Source of the DNA: Minisyncoccota bacterium
Lineage (GTDB): Bacteria > Patescibacteriota > Minisyncoccia > Phycocordibacterales > JABMNX01
NCBI GenBank assembly: GCA_026195275.1
Contig: JAPHQU010000003.1
Location: 71,852-135,851 of the forward strand
Length of the DNA: 64,000 nucleotides
Direction: 5' to 3'
The notes below the pieces were generated by a model. That model saw only the letters and a program-made list of their open reading frames with translations. It was not told the DNA's origin and did not search any database. How positions within the stretch are numbered: position 1 is the first letter of the stretch; the number at the start of each line of letters is the position of its first letter. This document shows, in pieces, positions 2,122-62,092 of the stretch. Made by a program: the position numbers and the translations under genes.

Positions 2122-4956
2122 ATGAGAGAGTACGACCATACAGGGATAGAGAAGAAGTGGCAGAAGAAGTGGGCTGAAGACGGTCTGTATCACACCGGAG
2201 AAGATTCAAAGAAAGAGAAATGCTACGTTCTTGATATGTTCCCATACCCGTCGGGGGAAGGACTTCATGTTGGTCATCCAAAAGGATATATCGCAACTGA
2301 CGTGTACTCTCGTTTTAAGCGTATGTCCGGATGCAACACGCTTCACCCAATGGGGTGGGACGCGTTTGGTTTGCCTGCCGAGCAGTATGCTCTGAAGAAC
2401 AGAGTCCACCCTCGTGTTGCGGTAGAGAAGAACGTGGCGCGCTTTAGAGAGCAGCTCAGCAATATTGGATTCAATTATGATTGGGATAGAGAAATCAATA
2501 CCACTGACCCCGACTATTACAAATGGACACAGTGGATCTTCTTAAAATTACATGAGAAGGGTCTCGCATATGAATCGTACGAACCGATCAACTGGTGCCC
2601 TTCGTGTTTGACAGGTCTCGCGAACGAAGATCTTGAAGACGGAGCGTGCGAGCGTTGTGGGAGCGAGATTGAGAAAAAGCCGATTAGGCAGTGGGTGCTT
2701 AAGATAACTGATTATGCCGATCGTATGCTCGATGACCTCGAGCTGCTTCCCGAGTGGTCGGAGTCGGTTAAGGAGCTTCAGCGCAATTGGATCGGGCGGA
2801 GTCGGGGCGCACGGATTACTTTTAGTATTAGCGGAGGAGAGTCTGTAGATGTTTTTACAACACGCCCTGACACACTCTTTGGTGCAACATATGTGGTACT
2901 TGCGCCGGAACACGCTCTTGTTGCGAAACTTCTCGAGGACAAGGGCTCAGGAATAAAAAACCAGGAAGAGATACTTCGATATGTCGAAGTATCCGGTAAG
3001 AAGTCTGAACTTGATCGACTCGACGCAACAAAGGAGAAGACCGGGGTCAAACTGGAGGGTATTGTGGCGACCAATCCGGCAAACGGTGAAGAGGTGCCTG
3101 TTTTTATAGCCGATTACGTACTTGCCGGATATGGTACAGGTGCGATCATGGCGGTTCCTTCGCACGATGAACGTGACTTTGAATTCGCGAAGAAGTTTCG
3201 TTTGCCGATACGAGAGGTGGTCATACCAAACATCATTGACCACAGAAATCCGCCCGTTAACGGGAAGGAATCAAAGGAGCGTCAAAATGTGCATGCAATC
3301 GTGTATTACCCAAAAGAAGAGAAGTACCTTGCGTTGAAATGGAAGAAGTTTGATTGGATCACTTTCCCGATGGGCGGGGTTGAGGAGGGAGAGAGTGTTG
3401 AGGATGCTGCGCGGCGCGAGGTTGCCGAGGAGACCGGGTTCACGAACCTCAAGCTTGTAAAGGTGCTTCCAAATCGCGCGCGCGCGGAGTATTTTGCGGC
3501 CCATAAAGACGAGAATCGAATTGCATACACTTCTGCGGTCGTGTTTGAACTTATGAGCGAAGATCGCGTTCCCATAGATGAGACCGAGCAAGAACAACAC
3601 GAAATAATATGGCTCAACGAATCGATGCTCAACTACGAGAACATGACACATGCAGAGATTGGTGAATGGCAGCGGCAACTTGCCGGGGTTGAGATGTACT
3701 CCGGTCATGGTGTGCTTGTTGATTCAGGTGATTTTTCTGGCATGAACTCAGAGGAGGCAAAAGAAGCAATCACCAAAAAGGTTGGTGGTGAGATGACGGT
3801 TACGTATCGACTTCAAGACTGGGTCTTCTCGCGACAGCGATACTGGGGGGAGCCGATCCCGATTATTCATTGTGAGACGTGTGGTGCGGTCCCGGTTCCT
3901 GAAGAAGATCTTCCGGTGCTTCTTCCCGATGTTGAGCACTATGAGCCAACCGGCACAGGGGAGTCGCCACTTGCAAATATTGAAGGGTGGGTGAATACAA
4001 CCTGTCCATCGTGTGGTGGCGCGGGAACGCGCGAGACCAACACAATGCCGCAGTGGGCGGGGTCCTCTTGGTATTACTTGAGGTTTATGGACCCGCACAA
4101 TGACCATGCACTCGTAGAGAAAGGCGTGGAGAAGTACTGGGGGCAGGTCGATGTCTATGTTGGAGGGGTTGAACATGCAACACGGCACCTTATTTATGCT
4201 CGCTTTTGGCACAAGTTTCTCTACGACATTGGAGTTGTCTCAACCAAAGAGCCATTCAAGCGTCTCTACACTGTCGGTCTGATCCAGGCCGAAGATGGGA
4301 GGAAGATGAGCAAGCGATGGGGGAATGTGATCAACCCGGACGACATCGTCGAGAGAGTTGGTGCTGACACGCTTCGTGTATATGAGATGTTTATGGGGCC
4401 GTTTGGCAACTCGATCGCGTGGAGTACCGACAACACGATCGGCTCACGTCGGTTCATTGAACGCATATGGAAGCTCAAGGAAAAGATCGGTACCGGATCA
4501 GTTCCTGAGACTGTCTTCCATAAGACGATCCAGAAGGTGGGGTCTGATATTGCCACATTTAATTTCAATACTGCAATTTCGCAGATGATGATTTGTGCGA
4601 ACTGTGCTGAAGAAGAAGGACTTACTGAAGATCAATACAAGACACTTCTCGTACTCTTTGCGCCGTTTGCACCCCATGTTACTGAAGAGCTCTGGCATCA
4701 ACTTGGTGAGAAAGACTCAATACATCTCGAATCTTGGCCGCAGTATGACCAGGAGAAACTGGTCTCTGATATAGCTTCAGTGGTGGTACAGATAAACGGG
4801 AAGACACGTGGAGTGGCTGAAGTCGCTACTGGAGCTCTTGAAGCAGATGTTCTCAATCAGGTGCGAGCAGACAAAGCGTTCGCACGCTGGCTTGGGGAGG
4901 GAGAATTAAAGAAGGTCGTCTATGTCAAAGATAAGTTGATAAACTTAGTTATTTGA
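2122..4956 (+). CDS. leuS: Leucyl-tRNA synthetase carrying an internal Nudix-hydrolase-like insertion
   Basis: 944-aa ORF. It has the HVGHPKGY (HIGH) motif, the TTRPDT editing (CP1) motif, AVPSHDERDFEFA, YRLQDWVFSRQRYWGEPIP and KMSKRWGN (KMSKS). It ends with TGA. Confidence 0.95.
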   Translation: MREYDHTGIEKKWQKKWAEDGLYHTGEDSKKEKCYVLDMFPYPSGEGLHVGHPKGYIATDVYSRFKRMSGCNTLHPMGWDAFGLPAEQYALKNRVHPRVAVEKNVARFREQLSNIGFNYDWDREINTTDPDYYKWTQWIFLKLHEKGLAYESYEPINWCPSCLTGLANEDLEDGACERCGSEIEKKPIRQWVLKITDYADRMLDDLELLPEWSESVKELQRNWIGRSRGARITFSISGGESVDVFTTRPDTLFGATYVVLAPEHALVAKLLEDKGSGIKNQEEILRYVEVSGKKSELDRLDATKEKTGVKLEGIVATNPANGEEVPVFIADYVLAGYGTGAIMAVPSHDERDFEFAKKFRLPIREVVIPNIIDHRNPPVNGKESKERQNVHAIVYYPKEEKYLALKWKKFDWITFPMGGVEEGESVEDAARREVAEETGFTNLKLVKVLPNRARAEYFAAHKDENRIAYTSAVVFELMSEDRVPIDETEQEQHEIIWLNESMLNYENMTHAEIGEWQRQLAGVEMYSGHGVLVDSGDFSGMNSEEAKEAITKKVGGEMTVTYRLQDWVFSRQRYWGEPIPIIHCETCGAVPVPEEDLPVLLPDVEHYEPTGTGESPLANIEGWVNTTCPSCGGAGTRETNTMPQWAGSSWYYLRFMDPHNDHALVEKGVEKYWGQVDVYVGGVEHATRHLIYARFWHKFLYDIGVVSTKEPFKRLYTVGLIQAEDGRKMSKRWGNVINPDDIVERVGADTLRVYEMFMGPFGNSIAWSTDNTIGSRRFIERIWKLKEKIGTGSVPETVFHKTIQKVGSDIATFNFNTAISQMMICANCAEEEGLTEDQYKTLLVLFAPFAPHVTEELWHQLGEKDSIHLESWPQYDQEKLVSDIASVVVQINGKTRGVAEVATGALEADVLNQVRADKAFARWLGEGELKKVVYVKDKLINLVI
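3229..3700 (+). other. Nudix-fold domain inserted in-frame inside LeuS
   Basis: About 150 extra residues sit between the HDERD region and the GVLVDSGDF segment, which are separated by about 20 aa in typical LeuS. The insertion contains a perfect Nudix box GGVEEGESVEDAARREVAEETGF (GX5EX7REUXEEXGU) at nt 3373-3441. Confidence 0.7.
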
Positions 4957-6147: not shown

Positions 6148-7476
6148 ATGAGTTTCAATCCTTTTAAGATACTCGAGGATTTTGGTATCCCAACAATCGG
6201 TCTGGTGATCGCCTCTTTTTTTGTCTTACTTGGTATTGTCTACTACTGGACCCCCGCAGAGATGACCTTCACTCCTGCGGCTCGCTTGCTTCTTCTCTCT
6301 GCGCCGATCTGGGTGCCGATTATACTCAGTGTTACATTTTGGAAGATTTGGCTTGAATATATTCGTGCTAAGTTTATTAGCTCCCAGAAGCACGTGCTTC
6401 TTGAGATCAAATTGCCACGTGAAGTGGTGCGTTCTCCTCAAGCAATGGAGACCTTGCTCACCAACCTTCATATTGGGATGGGTGAGGGTACATTCATCAA
6501 CCGCTACATTGAGGGTAGGGTGCGCCCCTGGTATTCGCTTGAGATCGCCTCACTTGGTGGACGAATCCACTTCTTTATTTGGACACGTGCATTTCTCAGA
6601 GATGTAGTTGAGGCGCAGATCTACGGACAATATCCAATGGTTGAGGTACACGAAGTTGAGGATTACGCACAAAAACTTGGTTATCATCCTGATCGGTATG
6701 GTCTATGGGGGTGTGATTTCAAACTTACCGGCAAGGACGCGTATCCGATCAAGACGTACATTGATTACGGTCTTGATAAGGATCCAAAGGAGGAATATAA
6801 GATCGATCCGATGGCAGGATTCTTCGAGTTCTTGAGTCATATCGGGCCGGATGAGCAGATTTGGTTTCAGCTCATGATACGAATGAATAAAGACAAACTC
6901 CGTGAAGACCGAAAATATAAGAAAGGTGTGTTTTTTGTTGAGACCACGAGCTGGAAAGATGAGGCTAAAGAAGAAATAGAAAAGATTCGAGAGGAATCGC
7001 GCCCTGAAACCTCCGGAGATTTCCCCGGATTCCCCAACCCAACACCGGGGCAGACTGACAAGATCAAGGCGCTTGAACGGAGTGTTTCAAAACTGGGGTT
7101 TGATGCGGGTATGCGGGGTATCTACATCGCAAAGAAGGACGCGTTCAACCCATCGAACATCGCAGCTCTGACATCATCACTTAAACAACTGAACGCGAGT
7201 GATCGAAACGGTATTGCACCAACACGTTGGTTCACTGAGTTTGGCTACCCGTGGCAGGATATTTTTGGGAAGAAGCAGGAGAATTACCGCAAATGGATTA
7301 TTGATGCGTACCGTCGACGCTCGTGGTTCCATGAGCCATATAAGACACCCTGGTTTGTATTTAATACTGAGGAAATTGCAACGATCTTCCATTTCCCCGG
7401 TTCAGTTGTTCAGGCTCCGACCCTTGAGCGAATCTCATCCACGAAAGGAGAGGCGCCACCAAATCTTCCCGGTTAG
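6148..7476 (+). CDS. Hypothetical membrane-anchored protein (2 N-terminal TM helices, large soluble domain)
   Basis: 442-aa ORF. It has hydrophobic N-terminal helices and no motifs I recognise. Confidence 0.55.
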   Translation: MSFNPFKILEDFGIPTIGLVIASFFVLLGIVYYWTPAEMTFTPAARLLLLSAPIWVPIILSVTFWKIWLEYIRAKFISSQKHVLLEIKLPREVVRSPQAMETLLTNLHIGMGEGTFINRYIEGRVRPWYSLEIASLGGRIHFFIWTRAFLRDVVEAQIYGQYPMVEVHEVEDYAQKLGYHPDRYGLWGCDFKLTGKDAYPIKTYIDYGLDKDPKEEYKIDPMAGFFEFLSHIGPDEQIWFQLMIRMNKDKLREDRKYKKGVFFVETTSWKDEAKEEIEKIREESRPETSGDFPGFPNPTPGQTDKIKALERSVSKLGFDAGMRGIYIAKKDAFNPSNIAALTSSLKQLNASDRNGIAPTRWFTEFGYPWQDIFGKKQENYRKWIIDAYRRRSWFHEPYKTPWFVFNTEEIATIFHFPGSVVQAPTLERISSTKGEAPPNLPG

Positions 7477-8516: not shown

Positions 8517-9575
8517 ATGAAGAAAGGAAAAGGGCGAGTATTTGTCGGTGTCTCTGGGGGTGTAGACTCTTCGGTGTCTGCTGCCCTTCTCAAGAAAGCC
8601 GGATATGATGTGGTTGGTGTGTTCATTAAGGTATGGCACCCAGATTTCTTACCGTGCAATTGGGAGCGTGAGCGAATGGACGCGATGCGGGTGTGCGTAC
8701 GGCTTGGTATACCTTTCTGTACCTTCGACGCGGAAGCTGAATACAAAGAATTTGTTGCTGAGTATTTAATTCAAGAATACCGCAGAGGACGGACACCAAA
8801 CCCGGACGTGATGTGTAATAAACACGTGAAGTTTGGGAGTTTTCTTAATTTTGCGCGAGAAAGAGGAGCTGACTTTATCGCAACCGGACACTATGCGCGT
8901 GTCGATGAACGGGGTGGCTCCTATCGACTCCTTCAGGGAGTCGATAAAGAGAAAGATCAATCGTATTTCCTCTGGACACTCTCACAAGACGAACTCAAAC
9001 ACGTACGTTTTCCTATTGGTGAATATACAAAACCGGAAGTACGCAAACTTGCAAAGAAGTTCGGACTCTCGACTGCTGAGAAGAAAGATAGTCAAGGCAT
9101 TTGTTTCCTTGGCCCAGTCGATATGGAGGAATTTCTCTCACATTATATCGATACAAAACCTGGTGAGGTGATTACACAGGACGGCACGGTTGTGGGTAGA
9201 CATCATGGTGCGTTGATTTATACCATTGGGCAACGACACGGCTTCGAGATAACGGAAGCAGATACTGAGCGTAAGCCGTACTATGTGGTTGAAAAGCGTA
9301 TCCTCGACAATATACTCGTGGTCTCGCACAATCCAAACGACCCACAATTTAATAAAAAGGATGTAGTGCTTGAGAATAGTCATTGGGTCGCCGGTGCGCC
9401 GGAGGCAGGAAGGGAATACACAGCACGCTTCAGGCATCGCGGAGAGTTATACCCATGCACGGTGAAAGGAGACACCGTGAATTTCAGGGAACCGCAGAAC
9501 GGACTTGCGCGTGGTCAGTCGCTTGTCATATACGACAAGGAAGAGTGTGTTGGTGGTGGTGTGATCTCTTGGTAG
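8517..9575 (+). CDS. mnmA: tRNA-specific 2-thiouridylase MnmA
   Basis: VGVSGGVDSSV PP-loop, followed by CNKHVKFG and ATGHYAR motifs. Confidence 0.9.
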   Translation: MKKGKGRVFVGVSGGVDSSVSAALLKKAGYDVVGVFIKVWHPDFLPCNWERERMDAMRVCVRLGIPFCTFDAEAEYKEFVAEYLIQEYRRGRTPNPDVMCNKHVKFGSFLNFARERGADFIATGHYARVDERGGSYRLLQGVDKEKDQSYFLWTLSQDELKHVRFPIGEYTKPEVRKLAKKFGLSTAEKKDSQGICFLGPVDMEEFLSHYIDTKPGEVITQDGTVVGRHHGALIYTIGQRHGFEITEADTERKPYYVVEKRILDNILVVSHNPNDPQFNKKDVVLENSHWVAGAPEAGREYTARFRHRGELYPCTVKGDTVNFREPQNGLARGQSLVIYDKEECVGGGVISW

Positions 9576-9585
9576 ACTAAAAACA

Positions 9586-10437
9586 ATGGAGAAAGAAGTA
9601 CTCATCAAGAAGACTGACGGGAGCATGGAGCCGTTTCAGAGCGGCAAGCTTCGGCGCTCGCTTCGGCGCGCCGGCGCGAGTGACGAGCATGTTGAGGAGA
9701 TCGTCGCTGAGGTGCTCGGTATGCTTGAGTCGAGGATGAGCACGACACAGATTTACAAGAAAGCTCATTCTTTGCTCCGTAAAAAAGAGGCGTGCACAGT
9801 AACGGCGAGGTATTCGTTGAAAAGAGCAGTCTTCGCACTCGGGCCAAGTGGTTTCCCATTTGAGGCATTCATCGGTGAGTTGTATCAAGCAGAAGGATAT
9901 CGTGTGAGTAACAACGATATTCTTGAAGGTCGCTGTGTATCACACGAGACTGATATGCTTGCCACTTCAGACAACAAGACCATTGCCGCGGAAATAAAAT
10001 TTCACAATCGCCTGGGGATTAAGACCGACCTTAAAGCTGCTCTTTACGTAAAAGCGCGATTCGATGACCTTGTTGGTGTCTACGATAAGAAGCTGGATGT
10101 GACGATTAGTGAAGGGGTGCTTATCACCAATACGAAGTTTACAAGTAACGCCGAGCGTTACGGAACATGTGCCGGACTCTCGATGATATCATGGAGTTAT
10201 CCGCATAAAGATGGCAATCTGCACGCGAGGATCATTGGTGCCGGTCTCCATCCGGTAACTTGCCTCCCGTCTATCTCAAGCAGGGAGAAGCGAATCTTGC
10301 TTGAGCACAACCTTGTCTTGTGTCGTGACATAAAAGAACACTCGGGCGAGTTGGTCAGATACGGTATCTCAGAGAAAAAAATACCCGTACTCCTTGAGGA
10401 GGCGTCAACCTTGTGTCAGTCCTGCGAGAAAGTGTAG
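9586..10437 (+). CDS. ATP-cone domain fused to a PD-(D/E)xK (Mrr-type restriction-endonuclease-like) domain
   Basis: The N-terminal LIKKTDGSMEPFQSGKLRRSL is ATP-cone-like, as in NrdR. The downstream FEAFIGELYQAEGYRV...HETDML...AAEIKFH fits a D-x(n)-E-x-K nuclease core. Confidence 0.6.
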   Translation: MEKEVLIKKTDGSMEPFQSGKLRRSLRRAGASDEHVEEIVAEVLGMLESRMSTTQIYKKAHSLLRKKEACTVTARYSLKRAVFALGPSGFPFEAFIGELYQAEGYRVSNNDILEGRCVSHETDMLATSDNKTIAAEIKFHNRLGIKTDLKAALYVKARFDDLVGVYDKKLDVTISEGVLITNTKFTSNAERYGTCAGLSMISWSYPHKDGNLHARIIGAGLHPVTCLPSISSREKRILLEHNLVLCRDIKEHSGELVRYGISEKKIPVLLEEASTLCQSCEKV

Positions 10438-61334: not shown

Positions 61335-61373
61335 CCGCCCACCGAGGTATTCTCGGTGGGCGGTTTCTTTTTT
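61335..61373 (+). terminator. Rho-independent terminator
   Basis: 12-bp stem ccgcccaccgag/ctcggtgggcgg with loop gtatt, followed by tttctttttt. Confidence 0.8.
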
Positions 61374-61394: not shown

Positions 61395-61557
61395 TAGATG
61401 AGTCGCCACCTCAATGAAGTCTCTTCATTGAGTGCTGGCGTCCTCGGAGGGGGCGGACTCGATCTGCTTGTGCATGCAACGTGCACACCCCGTAGCGACC
61501 GTTCTGCCCCCTCCACCCCACCCTTCCCGGCGTCCACACGCCGGGTTTTTTATTTTT
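61395..61557 (+). ncRNA. Candidate small structured RNA (unclassified)
   Basis: A GC-rich segment of about 160 nt lies between two terminators. Upstream are a TG-TATTAT extended -10-like box (61386-61393) and TTGATA. It holds internal hairpins (tcaatgaag/cttcattga, gtgca...tgcac) and ends in a cccggcg/cgccggg hairpin plus T-run at 61526-61557. Confidence 0.3.
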
Positions 61558-61563
61558 AACTGG

Positions 61564-61578
61564 TGACCCTACGGGGAA
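61564..61578 (-). repeat. 15-nt exact copy of the tRNA-Glu 3' end (TTCCCCGTAGGGTCA) followed by CCA
   Basis: Identical to 61767-61781. It reads ...TTCCCCGTAGGGTCACCA on the minus strand. Confidence 0.7.
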
Positions 61579-61697
61579 GGCGTCAGGTTTCTAAGCTCTC
61601 GCCACACCCCATAGGGTGTGGCAATCACTAAGAACCTCCTGCCCGGACTCGGCGACAAGCCTCCGCCTGCGGCGGATCTTGTATACCGCCTCCGTCT

Positions 61698-61786
61698 TTC
61701 GATTCCCCGTAGGTAACCCTGCAGACACTAAAAAGCCGATGCTTTGCATCGGTCTTTTAGTGTCTGTGACCCTACGGGGAATCGAA
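61698..61786 (-). repeat. ~89-nt imperfect inverted repeat that includes the tRNA-Glu T-arm and 3' acceptor strand
   Basis: The outer 16-bp arms (61698-61713 with 61771-61786) are perfect. The inner 21-bp arms (61722-61742 with 61746-61766) have one bulge and an internal loop. Confidence 0.7.
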
Positions 61787-61838
61787 CCCCGGTTTCATCC
61801 GTGAGAGGGATGTGTCCTAGCCGCTAGACGATAGGGCC
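61767..61838 (-). tRNA. tRNA-Glu (anticodon CUC)
   Basis: Manual fold of GGCCCTATCGTCTAGCGGCTAGGACACATCCCTCTCACGGATGAAACCGGGGTTCGATTCCCCGTAGGGTCA. It has a 7-bp acceptor stem, a D-arm, an anticodon loop CTCTCAC and the T-loop TTCGATT. CCA is not encoded. Confidence 0.8.
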
Positions 61839-62001
61839 TAATAGTACTGCTTTTATTCTGAGTGTCCAATGAGAGTTTGTGCATCTCACCCAGGACACAT
61901 CCCTCTACGAGGGCTTGCCCTATCGTCTCGTAAACATCGACGATTTCCTCGCGGTTGCGAGGAACCGGATGAAAAGCAAAGCAGTTTGCTTTTCATTCCA
62001 A

Positions 62002-62022
62002 TAGCCGCTAGACGATAGGGCC
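62002..62022 (-). repeat. 21-nt exact copy of the tRNA-Glu 5' end (GGCCCTATCGTCTAGCGGCTA)
   Basis: Identical to 61818-61838. It lies 184 nt upstream of the tRNA in the tRNA's orientation. Confidence 0.7.
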
Positions 62023-62092
62023 AAATTTCAATGCCCCACATGTGTGAGGCATTGATAGAATACTACATTTTTTTGGTCTTGGCAAAATAACC

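Follow-up and report, generated by a model that had tools for sequence, protein, structure and literature searches.

Integration of kilobase-sized elements is well known to give rise to fragments of tRNA genes (PMC9897764), and group I introns are known in the tRNA genes of Patescibacteria (PMC13011429). Here we describe a tRNA-Glu(CUC) gene that has features in common with both. It is the sole tRNA gene of a 64 kb stretch of DNA, hereafter the window, that is chromosomal DNA of a bacterium of the Patescibacteria (candidate phyla radiation, CPR). The gene is flanked by perfect copies of its own ends, and the upstream copy is followed by a structured module of ~85 nt that we term M. We favour, with moderate confidence, a reading in which a working tRNA-Glu(CUC) gene lies inside the wreck of an older copy, together with two insertion modules that lack open reading frames (ORFs). 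No Rfam family describes an 85-nt D-loop module with a regenerated gene, nor does either of the papers cited above, and literature searches gave no description of this module; they yielded only the group I introns of Patescibacteria tRNA genes and integration-derived tRNA fragments.

The arrangement is like that of att fragments and cis-mobilizable remnants (CIMEs) in having a direct repeat of the 3′ part of the tRNA from the T-loop to the end of the gene, a gene rebuilt from an element-borne copy with the original end outermost, and tandem units. It differs from these in the size of the inserts (137-200 bp), which are ORF-less with no integrase nearby, in having a mirror-image module on the 5′ side that includes a promoter, and in its conserved structured core M, which was not found on viral contigs, and its inverted tRNA fragments. 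The group I introns occur in the same phylum, and they too are structured non-coding inserts at fixed tRNA positions that are missed by annotation tools. However, they lie in the anticodon loop (e.g. 35/36) and are self-splicing, so that the interrupted gene is functional, whereas M is 85 nt long, lies in the D-loop of a crippled copy with an intact copy alongside wherever the contig permitted the check, and gives no intron signal in Rfam.

The tRNA gene and the copies of its ends

ARAGORN places the tRNA-Glu(CUC) gene at 61766-61838 on the minus strand, and the Rfam tRNA model RF00005 scores it at 59.9 bits. Both find a single tRNA, so an earlier note on this DNA had not mis-parsed two or three ordinary adjacent tRNA genes, as it had allowed might be the case. 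The features of the region are as follows, in the order in which they are met along the minus strand.

62057..62085, minus strand: outer promoter-like site TTGCCA-17-TATTCT, upstream of a_outer (promoter scan)
62028..62055, minus strand: leader hairpin between the outer promoter and a_outer (inverted repeat; forms in the predicted fold)
62002..62022, minus strand: a_outer, a perfect copy (21 nt) of tRNA positions 1-21, 184 nt start to start (self-comparison)
61917..62001, minus strand: module M, ~85 nt, three hairpins (H1 61967-61999, H2 61945-61964, H3 61922-61944), then AGGGC (covariance model R1)
61892..61916, minus strand: putative remnant of an older anticodon arm, a CCCTC-GTA-GAGGG hairpin plus ATGTGTCCT (self-comparison, fold)
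61841..61868, minus strand: inner promoter-like site TGGACA-16-TACTAT, 2 nt upstream of the tRNA (promoter scan)
61766..61838, minus strand: complete tRNA-Glu(CUC) gene, CCA not encoded (ARAGORN, Rfam RF00005)
61722..61766, minus strand: long hairpin with intrinsic terminator, core 61736-61752 (inverted repeat, terminator scan)
61698..61713, minus strand: c′, a perfect 16-nt inverted copy of tRNA positions 53-68 (inverted repeat)
61579..61697, minus strand: body of the 3′ module D, two hairpin domains, ~120 nt (side-by-side reading of D regions, fold)
61561..61578, minus strand: c_outer, in which the final 16 nt of the gene recur unchanged and are followed by CA, giving ...GGGTCA-CCA (self-comparison)

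Five segments of the flanks match the tRNA with 100% identity, two in direct and three in inverted orientation. The 5′ copy, a_outer, was seen in self-comparison just as the earlier note had described it, a perfect 21-nt copy lying 184 nt upstream; both a_outer and the gene carry a D-loop variant specific to the window, AGCGGCTA. On the 3′ side a perfect copy followed by CCA is indeed present 203 nt from the gene, but its length is 16 nt rather than the 15 nt reported. The copy proper (61563-61578) comprises positions 58-73 plus C74, and encodes CCA (TCAC-CA); the gene reads TCAC-AG instead, and so does not itself encode CCA, as had been noted. The repeats are separated by 163 nt on the 5′ side and 187 nt on the 3′ side. 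We read a_outer and c_outer as the displaced 5′ and 3′ ends of an older copy of the gene.

Two inverted fragments had been placed at about 61889-61933, and both are there. The first is 15 nt (61892-61906), antisense to tRNA positions 21-35, and the second (61917-61928) is antisense to positions 2-13, matching over 12 nt (GCCCTATCGTCT) and thus less than the sequence quoted. A third, c′, of 16 nt and antisense to positions 53-68, had been missed.

The significance of these matches was assessed using 2000 dinucleotide-preserving shuffles of the two 300-nt flanks. A tRNA match of at least 10 nt was found in just 107 of the 2000, and the longest on either strand, 12 nt, arose once. A chance origin of the repeats is therefore ruled out. 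The earlier note was also right to see in them the traces of rearranged DNA at a tRNA gene.

A decayed inverted tRNA pseudogene upstream of the gene was considered and rejected. The inverted fragments upstream, two in number, do not follow each other as they would in an inverted gene, and the one of 12 nt is part of H3 of M. The ATCG(T/C)C stem of this hairpin occurs at Leu and non-tRNA loci as well.

Related tRNA-Glu loci

Relatives were taken as loci with tRNA-Glu(CUC) near murF, and have MurF identities of 45-79%. A MurF search of reference genomes gave four distant loci; closer relatives were obtained through the protein database and contig look-ups. Individual loci are denoted by L numbers.

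The relatives repeat the layout of the window, and the flanking copies match each genome's own tRNA. The earlier note had envisaged that relatives might have the same flanks without repeats; they instead carry repeats that track the tRNA. Thus L008 has a copy of positions 1-18 at -175 and a segment antisense to 23-35 at -63, with a segment antisense to 53-63 at +121 and a copy of 53-65 at +189. The T stem of its tRNA is GACCC, and the copies match. The CTCTG T-stem variant of L007 is found in the gene and in its 3′ copies alike, and variants of the anticodon stem are followed by the copies in L008, L007 and L014. Even L001 (MurF identity 45%) has a 3′ arrangement built on its own GTGGGATCAC end. 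The anticodon-arm remnant that follows M in the window reads CCCTC-GTA-GAGGGATGTGTCC, its 3′ strand being the 15-nt antisense fragment, and the corresponding segment follows the genome's own anticodon stem in L008, L007, L014, L052, L068, L077 and L123.

The modules on the two sides, termed U (5′) and D (3′), are independent and variable, being present or absent separately and in tandem units. L009, L006 and L001 have the 3′ module without M, and L014 has the 5′ module without the 3′ one. The 3′ unit occurs twice in tandem in L011, L007 and L104, and the 5′ unit twice in L123. The inserts are 137-200 bp in all relatives. The unit of L011 is 137 nt and begins with tRNA positions 53-73; its direct repeat is 21 nt from the start of the T-loop (position 53), and CCA follows the last copy only. 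CCA is likewise encoded after the outermost 3′ copy in the window and L005, and after the intact genes of L003, L052 and L068. In L047, L068 and L077 the 5′ repeat runs upstream of position 1 by up to 38 nt, with the promoter region included, and therefore probably arose by duplication of DNA rather than by copying of mature tRNA.

Structure and covariation of M

M occurs once in the window, where it is scored by the covariance model R1 at 73 bits (E 2e-14). It consists of H1 (consensus GGAAUGAAA...UUUCAUCC), a GRUU linker, H2 of variable sequence, an AAAU linker, H3 and AUAGGG. H3 has a 6-bp stem, then UGU/ACA and then a mini-hairpin of the GCGAAGC type. Its 3′ strand, plus AGGGC, is the 12-nt inverted fragment at 61917-61928. 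Three hairpins after the 5′ copy are common to the window, L007, L008, L011 and L014.

In an alignment of 24 sequences (A1), 95.8% of cells are paired, and both sides have changed in 18 of the 29 pairs. None of 500 shuffles reached the observed values, and sliding the partners abolished the signal. The helices are nearly all Watson-Crick; of 670 cells, 633 are Watson-Crick, 9 are G·U and 4 A·C. In 26 of 32 cases the fold is better for the sense strand than for the antisense. The near-pure Watson-Crick stems and the sense-loop-antisense layouts are compatible with template switching or with structures formed in single-stranded DNA. The apical C-GNA-G loops resemble very stable DNA mini-hairpins.

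Neither M nor the body of D has a family in Rfam 15, where the only matches were to tRNA and at chance level. No intron family was matched at E values up to 5 or 10 for the window region and L085, nor at the gathering score for 10 loci. Known RNA families, ribozymes, the T-box, transfer-messenger RNA (tmRNA) and introns were all rejected as identities for M, there being no Rfam hits; in the case of a T-box riboswitch, the gene that M precedes is moreover one for tRNA. No M was found in viral contigs in three pattern scans of IMG/VR with a covariance-model check; plasmids, integrative and conjugative elements (ICEs) and the body of D were outside that search. A 9-nt antisense match to tRNA positions 38-46 within H1 is a coincidence, as H1 is kept in loci where the tRNA does not match.

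L002 has a weak M-like match (7293-7373, 24 bits) at the end of murF, and a degenerate 5′ copy plus an H1-like hairpin (8754-8836) located 83 nt upstream of tRNA-Glu. The M family may therefore be broader than the search pattern.

M at other tRNA genes

A scan of metagenome contigs with the H1 pattern gave 120 loci, with a hairpin-like H1 in 60 hits. A complete tRNA was found nearby in 40 of these 60, in every case on the same strand as M and, for the most part, with H1 30-165 nt upstream of it. These tRNAs are of the types Glu(CUC, UUC), Gln(CUG, UUG), Leu(UAG), Ser(GCU) and Thr(CGU). The R1 model found one M per contig in 45 metagenome loci, the other tRNA genes of those contigs being without it. 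If there is a tRNA after M, a 5′ piece of it is usually present just upstream of M, extending over positions 1-18/22 for Glu, 1-19 for Gln and 1-32/33 for Leu. In the Glu, Gln, Thr and Ser outer copies M is located in the D-loop, after G18/G19.

The Gln loci are the most clear-cut. There tRNA positions 1-19 are followed by M, and after AUAGG a tRNA of the same type resumes at the anticodon loop and continues to the 3′ end. The outer copy is thus nearly whole (positions 1-19 and 32-72), but the 5′ strand of its anticodon stem is usually missing and mismatches are often present. Within the apical loop of H3 is a complete tRNA-Gln, on a stalk of 13-15 bp. The outer copy looks like a disabled, pseudogene-like older copy, with the inner gene the working one. 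The Leu outer copies lack positions 34-39, and that of the window lacks positions 36-57. An intact tRNA of the same type lies alongside the outer copy wherever the contig permitted the check. When sequences stripped of M were submitted to ARAGORN, most joins merely reused the inner gene.

Some further arrangements were seen. A gene nested in a second, split copy of the same type, flanked by 7-14-nt inverted repeats, is found for tRNA-Ser in L039 (~3760-4240) and for tRNA-Leu in L021 upstream of M (~10180-10400); in L039 M is on the 3′ side, between an antisense copy of the T arm and a copy of the 3′ end. In L018, L037, L061, L092, L057 and L025, M precedes the gene of a ~75-nt non-tRNA hairpin RNA that has no Rfam match. 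A copy of the first 14 nt of this RNA (GGCACAATGTGGAG) precedes M, and a partly antisense stretch comes after it. No tRNA is detectable at M in L032, L085, L108, L133, L028/L060/L135 and L016, where M is followed by GTTTCCCCGTGG, which is like a 3′ fragment of tRNA-Glu, and by motifs of the 3′ module (GCGAAGCGACACTGAGG). In L016 a stretch resembling the 3′ module lies in the opposite orientation just upstream of M. The loci without tRNA may be fully decayed, or may be a contiguous form of both modules.

Promoter-like sites, terminator and module D

Just two promoter-like sites were found in a 900-nt region (shuffle mean 0.9), one preceding a_outer and the other the gene. At the spot equivalent to the outer site L008, L011, L014 and L009 have a common ATAAATAtTGTATTAT motif and then a hairpin; a hairpin at the leader position is also found in other relatives, and L009, which is among those that have it, has no M.

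The terminator hairpin lies directly 3′ of the tRNA in every relative, and in the window it is terminator-like on the plus strand too. The fragment c′ is the outer end of an imperfect palindrome, with arms of ~45 nt, that is centred on the terminator loop. Fragments equivalent to c′ are present in L008, L011, L001 and L005, and at the Gln locus L125 and the Leu locus L104. Read side by side, the D regions of the window, L005, L006, L007, L009, L008 and L001 have a common motif at the start of D, GAATCGAAA(A)G..GAGGC, and another at its end, CTTAGTGA..hairpin..TTAGAAAC(C/T)TGAC. There are no ORFs with a family match between the repeats.

A proposed nested gene with two insertion modules

These observations can be brought together in the following scheme, which is the reading that we favour. 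The 5′ copy (21 nt) and the 3′ copy (16 nt plus CCA) would be the two ends of an older copy of the gene. Module U would comprise M, inserted at the D-loop of that copy, what is left of its anticodon arm, and then a promoter together with a replacement for positions 1-21. Module D, entering at the T-loop, would supply a replacement tRNA 3′ end without CCA, a terminator, an inverted copy of the T arm and the body of ~120 nt. Each module would restore the part of the gene that it displaced, so that the gene stays functional and the original end is left as a direct repeat. The direct repeats could then permit tandem amplification and loss, giving the variation seen among relatives. The inverted fragments would be by-products, namely the 3′ strand of H3, the 3′ strand of the older anticodon stem and the far arm of the terminator palindrome. 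The outer pieces probably have no tRNA function.

Several observations suggest that the outer pieces are ancestral. The promoter-plus-hairpin upstream of the 5′ piece is common to L009, in which M is lacking; the outermost 3′ copy has the CCA that is encoded by the intact genes of relatives; and promoter-like sites precede both the 5′ piece and the gene, with a terminator right after the gene. That the copies are displaced ends of an older gene is also indicated by the Gln outer copies, which are nearly complete but crippled. Among the three explanations offered in the earlier note, a decayed tandem tRNA array comes closest, in so far as the flanking copies behave like opposite ends of one older tRNA-Glu copy.

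The modules appear to have arrived by insertion or recombination within short segments of the tRNA, possibly through homologous recombination or template switching. During replication, such switching (quasi-palindrome correction) can create or extend hairpins. Its products are like the perfect sense-loop-antisense arrangements beside the anticodon-arm and terminator hairpins in their near-pure Watson-Crick pairing, and there is TTCCT microhomology at a junction in L047. Template switching would account for the inverted fragments and the long palindrome, but not for an 85-nt module at several tRNAs or for the direct repeats.

Small non-autonomous repeats of bacteria include miniature inverted-repeat transposable elements (MITEs), repetitive extragenic palindromes and bacterial interspersed mosaic elements (REP/BIME), and palindromic elements derived from the insertion sequences (IS) IS200/IS605. 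M is like the MITE, REP and IS200 types in being ORF-less, rich in hairpins, ~100-200 bp in size, intergenic and of fixed orientation. Unlike these elements it is low in copy number (one in 64 kb, one per metagenome contig), has no terminal inverted repeats, has no short target duplications, the repeats being 16-70 nt of target sequence of variable extent, and is tied to genes for tRNA or small RNA. The split and permuted tRNA genes of Nanoarchaeota and red algae (PMC3978253) also have separated tRNA pieces with adjoining complementary sequences. However, the tRNA there comes from those pieces alone, which an archaeal or eukaryal endonuclease joins at a bulge-helix-bulge, whereas here we have a bacterium with an intact gene.

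A number of points weigh against a nested gene formed by insertion. No recombinase, transposase or reverse transcriptase linked to the modules was found, and the mechanism of insertion is only inferred. M is left without a vector, because it was not found on viral contigs. At the Glu locus M looks to have been inherited vertically over deep divergence. For the copies and the antisense segment to stay matched to the tRNA needs ongoing gene conversion or selection, and gene conversion is expected to be inefficient between segments of 13-21 nt. The conserved outer promoter suggests that an RNA containing M is made. Lastly, the stalk of the Gln loci goes beyond a simple insertion and looks like a design for RNA processing.

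Alternative explanations

The alternative that survives best is one of function at the level of RNA, which we nevertheless regard as unlikely. Here the leader (a_outer, M and the antisense segment) and the trailer (c′, the body of D and c_outer) would be parts of the pre-tRNA that have a function, or separate small RNAs. Pairing of the antisense segments would be with the D/anticodon region and the T arm, and the sense copies would be decoys that sequester the antisense, the whole acting as a switch over the folding, processing or availability of tRNA-Glu(CUC). The predicted fold of the leader does pair each antisense segment with a local sense mimic, and both the leader (z -7.5) and the tRNA plus trailer (z -10.3) are much more stably folded than shuffled sequences. 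The antisense segments track the lineage-specific tRNA sequence over deep divergence, and mismatches in the duplexes are more often G·U than A·C (three versus one, counted by eye). M covaries and its sense strand is usually the better folded, yet G·U makes up just 9 of its 670 cells, an unusual proportion in an RNA fold under selection. Conservation of the outer promoter also favours an RNA, as do the Gln loci, in which the stalk that carries the tRNA inside M is formed of leader and trailer and leaves no space for a separate promoter. This stalk looks like a processing platform. But the modules are dispensable, U or D being missing in close relatives, and a strong terminator stands between the tRNA and c′. 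Moreover, the direct repeats can take in promoter DNA upstream of position 1, the units are amplified in tandem, and the extents of c′ and of the repeats differ between genomes.

Classical att scars are less probable again. One or more kilobase-sized elements (a prophage or an ICE) would have entered by means of a tyrosine integrase and later been deleted, leaving attL/attR and a few hundred bp. The 3′ repeat is classical in form, and starts at the T-loop (position 53) in L011 and L008. In L011 it runs through the 3′ end, the ancestral CCA-bearing copy is outermost, and the tandem units resemble tandem accretion. In addition, element-derived fragments of tRNA genes are common in prokaryotes (PMC9897764). 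However, analysis of the neighbouring genes using Pfam and NCBIfam gave housekeeping families only, in conserved synteny, with no integrase or other mobile-element gene within 5 kb of the locus; the earlier note had also seen no integrase. The inserts are of uniformly small size in the relatives rather than variable remnants of deletion, and M is absent from the viral contigs scanned. Duplication also affects the 5′ side, where the conserved non-coding core is common to five tRNA types. Integrative-element traffic, which the earlier note had proposed, does not fit ORF-less inserts of ~160-200 bp, one of them taking the place of the gene's 5′ part, nor a 5′ insert with a conserved structured core that recurs at several tRNA types.

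It is very improbable that the region encodes a single tRNA-like RNA of ~460 nt, akin to tmRNA; a single long transcript had been among the possibilities put forward in the earlier note. GGCCCUA and UAGGGUC-ACCA would form an outer acceptor stem, with the inner tRNA and the modules as expansions of the D, variable and T loops. The minimum free energy fold predicted for the window does pair the 5′ strands of the acceptor and T-stem with c_outer, leaving ACCA free, and a_outer closes a 12-bp helix around H1 and H2; the outer copy also encodes CCA. But this arrangement is not conserved in the relatives. L014 has no 3′ copy, the copy of L008 ends before the acceptor strand, and the copies of L007 are mutated or truncated. 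A strong terminator lies inside the proposed transcript, ARAGORN found no tmRNA, and neither a tmRNA nor another long RNA family was found in Rfam.

That M is a true intervening sequence of a functional outer tRNA, spliced or cut out without ligation, has next to no likelihood, for while M lies at one defined place in the D-loop, after G18/G19 (Glu, Gln, Thr, Ser), and the tRNA genes of Patescibacteria are rich in introns (PMC13011429), the missing positions 36-57 exclude it for the window, the Gln and Leu outer copies usually lack the 5′ anticodon-stem strand and lack 34-39 respectively, the intact tRNA is always alongside where this could be checked, and Rfam gives no group I or group II signal.

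Implications for tRNA genes in reduced genomes

M is a covariation-backed non-coding structure at no fewer than five tRNA types and one other small-RNA gene, in strongly reduced genomes, and its persistence under genome reduction suggests that it either has a role in the biogenesis of tRNA or is selfish in an efficient way. We tentatively suggest that M and the 3′ module are the core of an undescribed class of ORF-less elements in Patescibacteria or, alternatively, a new leader RNA of pre-tRNA. If the former, the elements would colonise the D-loop and T-loop of genes for tRNA and small RNA, surviving by bringing their own promoter or terminator and a replacement for the displaced part of the gene. 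If the latter, M would base-pair with the tRNA that follows and present it on a stalk for processing. Either would be a new architecture for tRNA genes, nested in the manner of Russian dolls, in the most reduced of bacterial genomes. If the modules do restore what they displace, this would be a protein-free colonisation by DNA of essential single-copy genes, and would show that tRNA genes can be rebuilt in place. The question is also raised of whether the supply of tRNA is controlled by cis-antisense leaders in these bacteria.

There is a practical consequence. Programs that find tRNA report the innermost gene only and so overlook M and the outer pieces. For Patescibacteria, the numbers of genes, the calling of pseudogenes and predictions of integration sites may as a result be systematically off.

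Genomic context and other observations

The neighbours of the locus encode MurF, a penicillin-binding protein (PBP), a 3-methyladenine glycosylase, a Na/Ca exchanger, TruB, YqeY and a P-type ATPase (Pfam, NCBIfam). The MurF protein has 100% identity to one from a 'Candidatus Pacebacteria' metagenome-assembled genome, in keeping with an origin of the window in a Patescibacteria chromosome. The gene order mraZ-rsmH-PBP-murF ... Na/Ca exchanger-truB is conserved around the locus. In most relatives the whole tRNA unit is inverted relative to murF, with differing small ORFs between murF and the tRNA. The intergenic region between murF and the tRNA is often rearranged despite the conserved order of the flanks (L005, L007, L008, L009, L011 and L014 compared with the window and L006).

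Short GC-rich palindromes of 20-46 nt (..CTGCCGGCAG.., CCCGCCTGC...GCGGGCAG) are inserted in displaced tRNA pieces or in M. They are located in the 5′ copy between positions 10 and 11 in L007 and L052, at the apex of H3 in L068 and L129, and in the outer anticodon loop in L125. These may be a second, even smaller insertion element.

A candidate small RNA (61398-61556, plus strand) lies between two plus-strand terminators, one (61335-61363) belonging to the upstream gene and the other at 61526-61545. Just 5′ of it is an extended -10-like motif, TGTATTAT. It is predicted to fold at -81 kcal/mol (z -8.25), has no match in Rfam, and includes CACACCCCGTAG, a further short inverted piece of the 3′ region of the tRNA.

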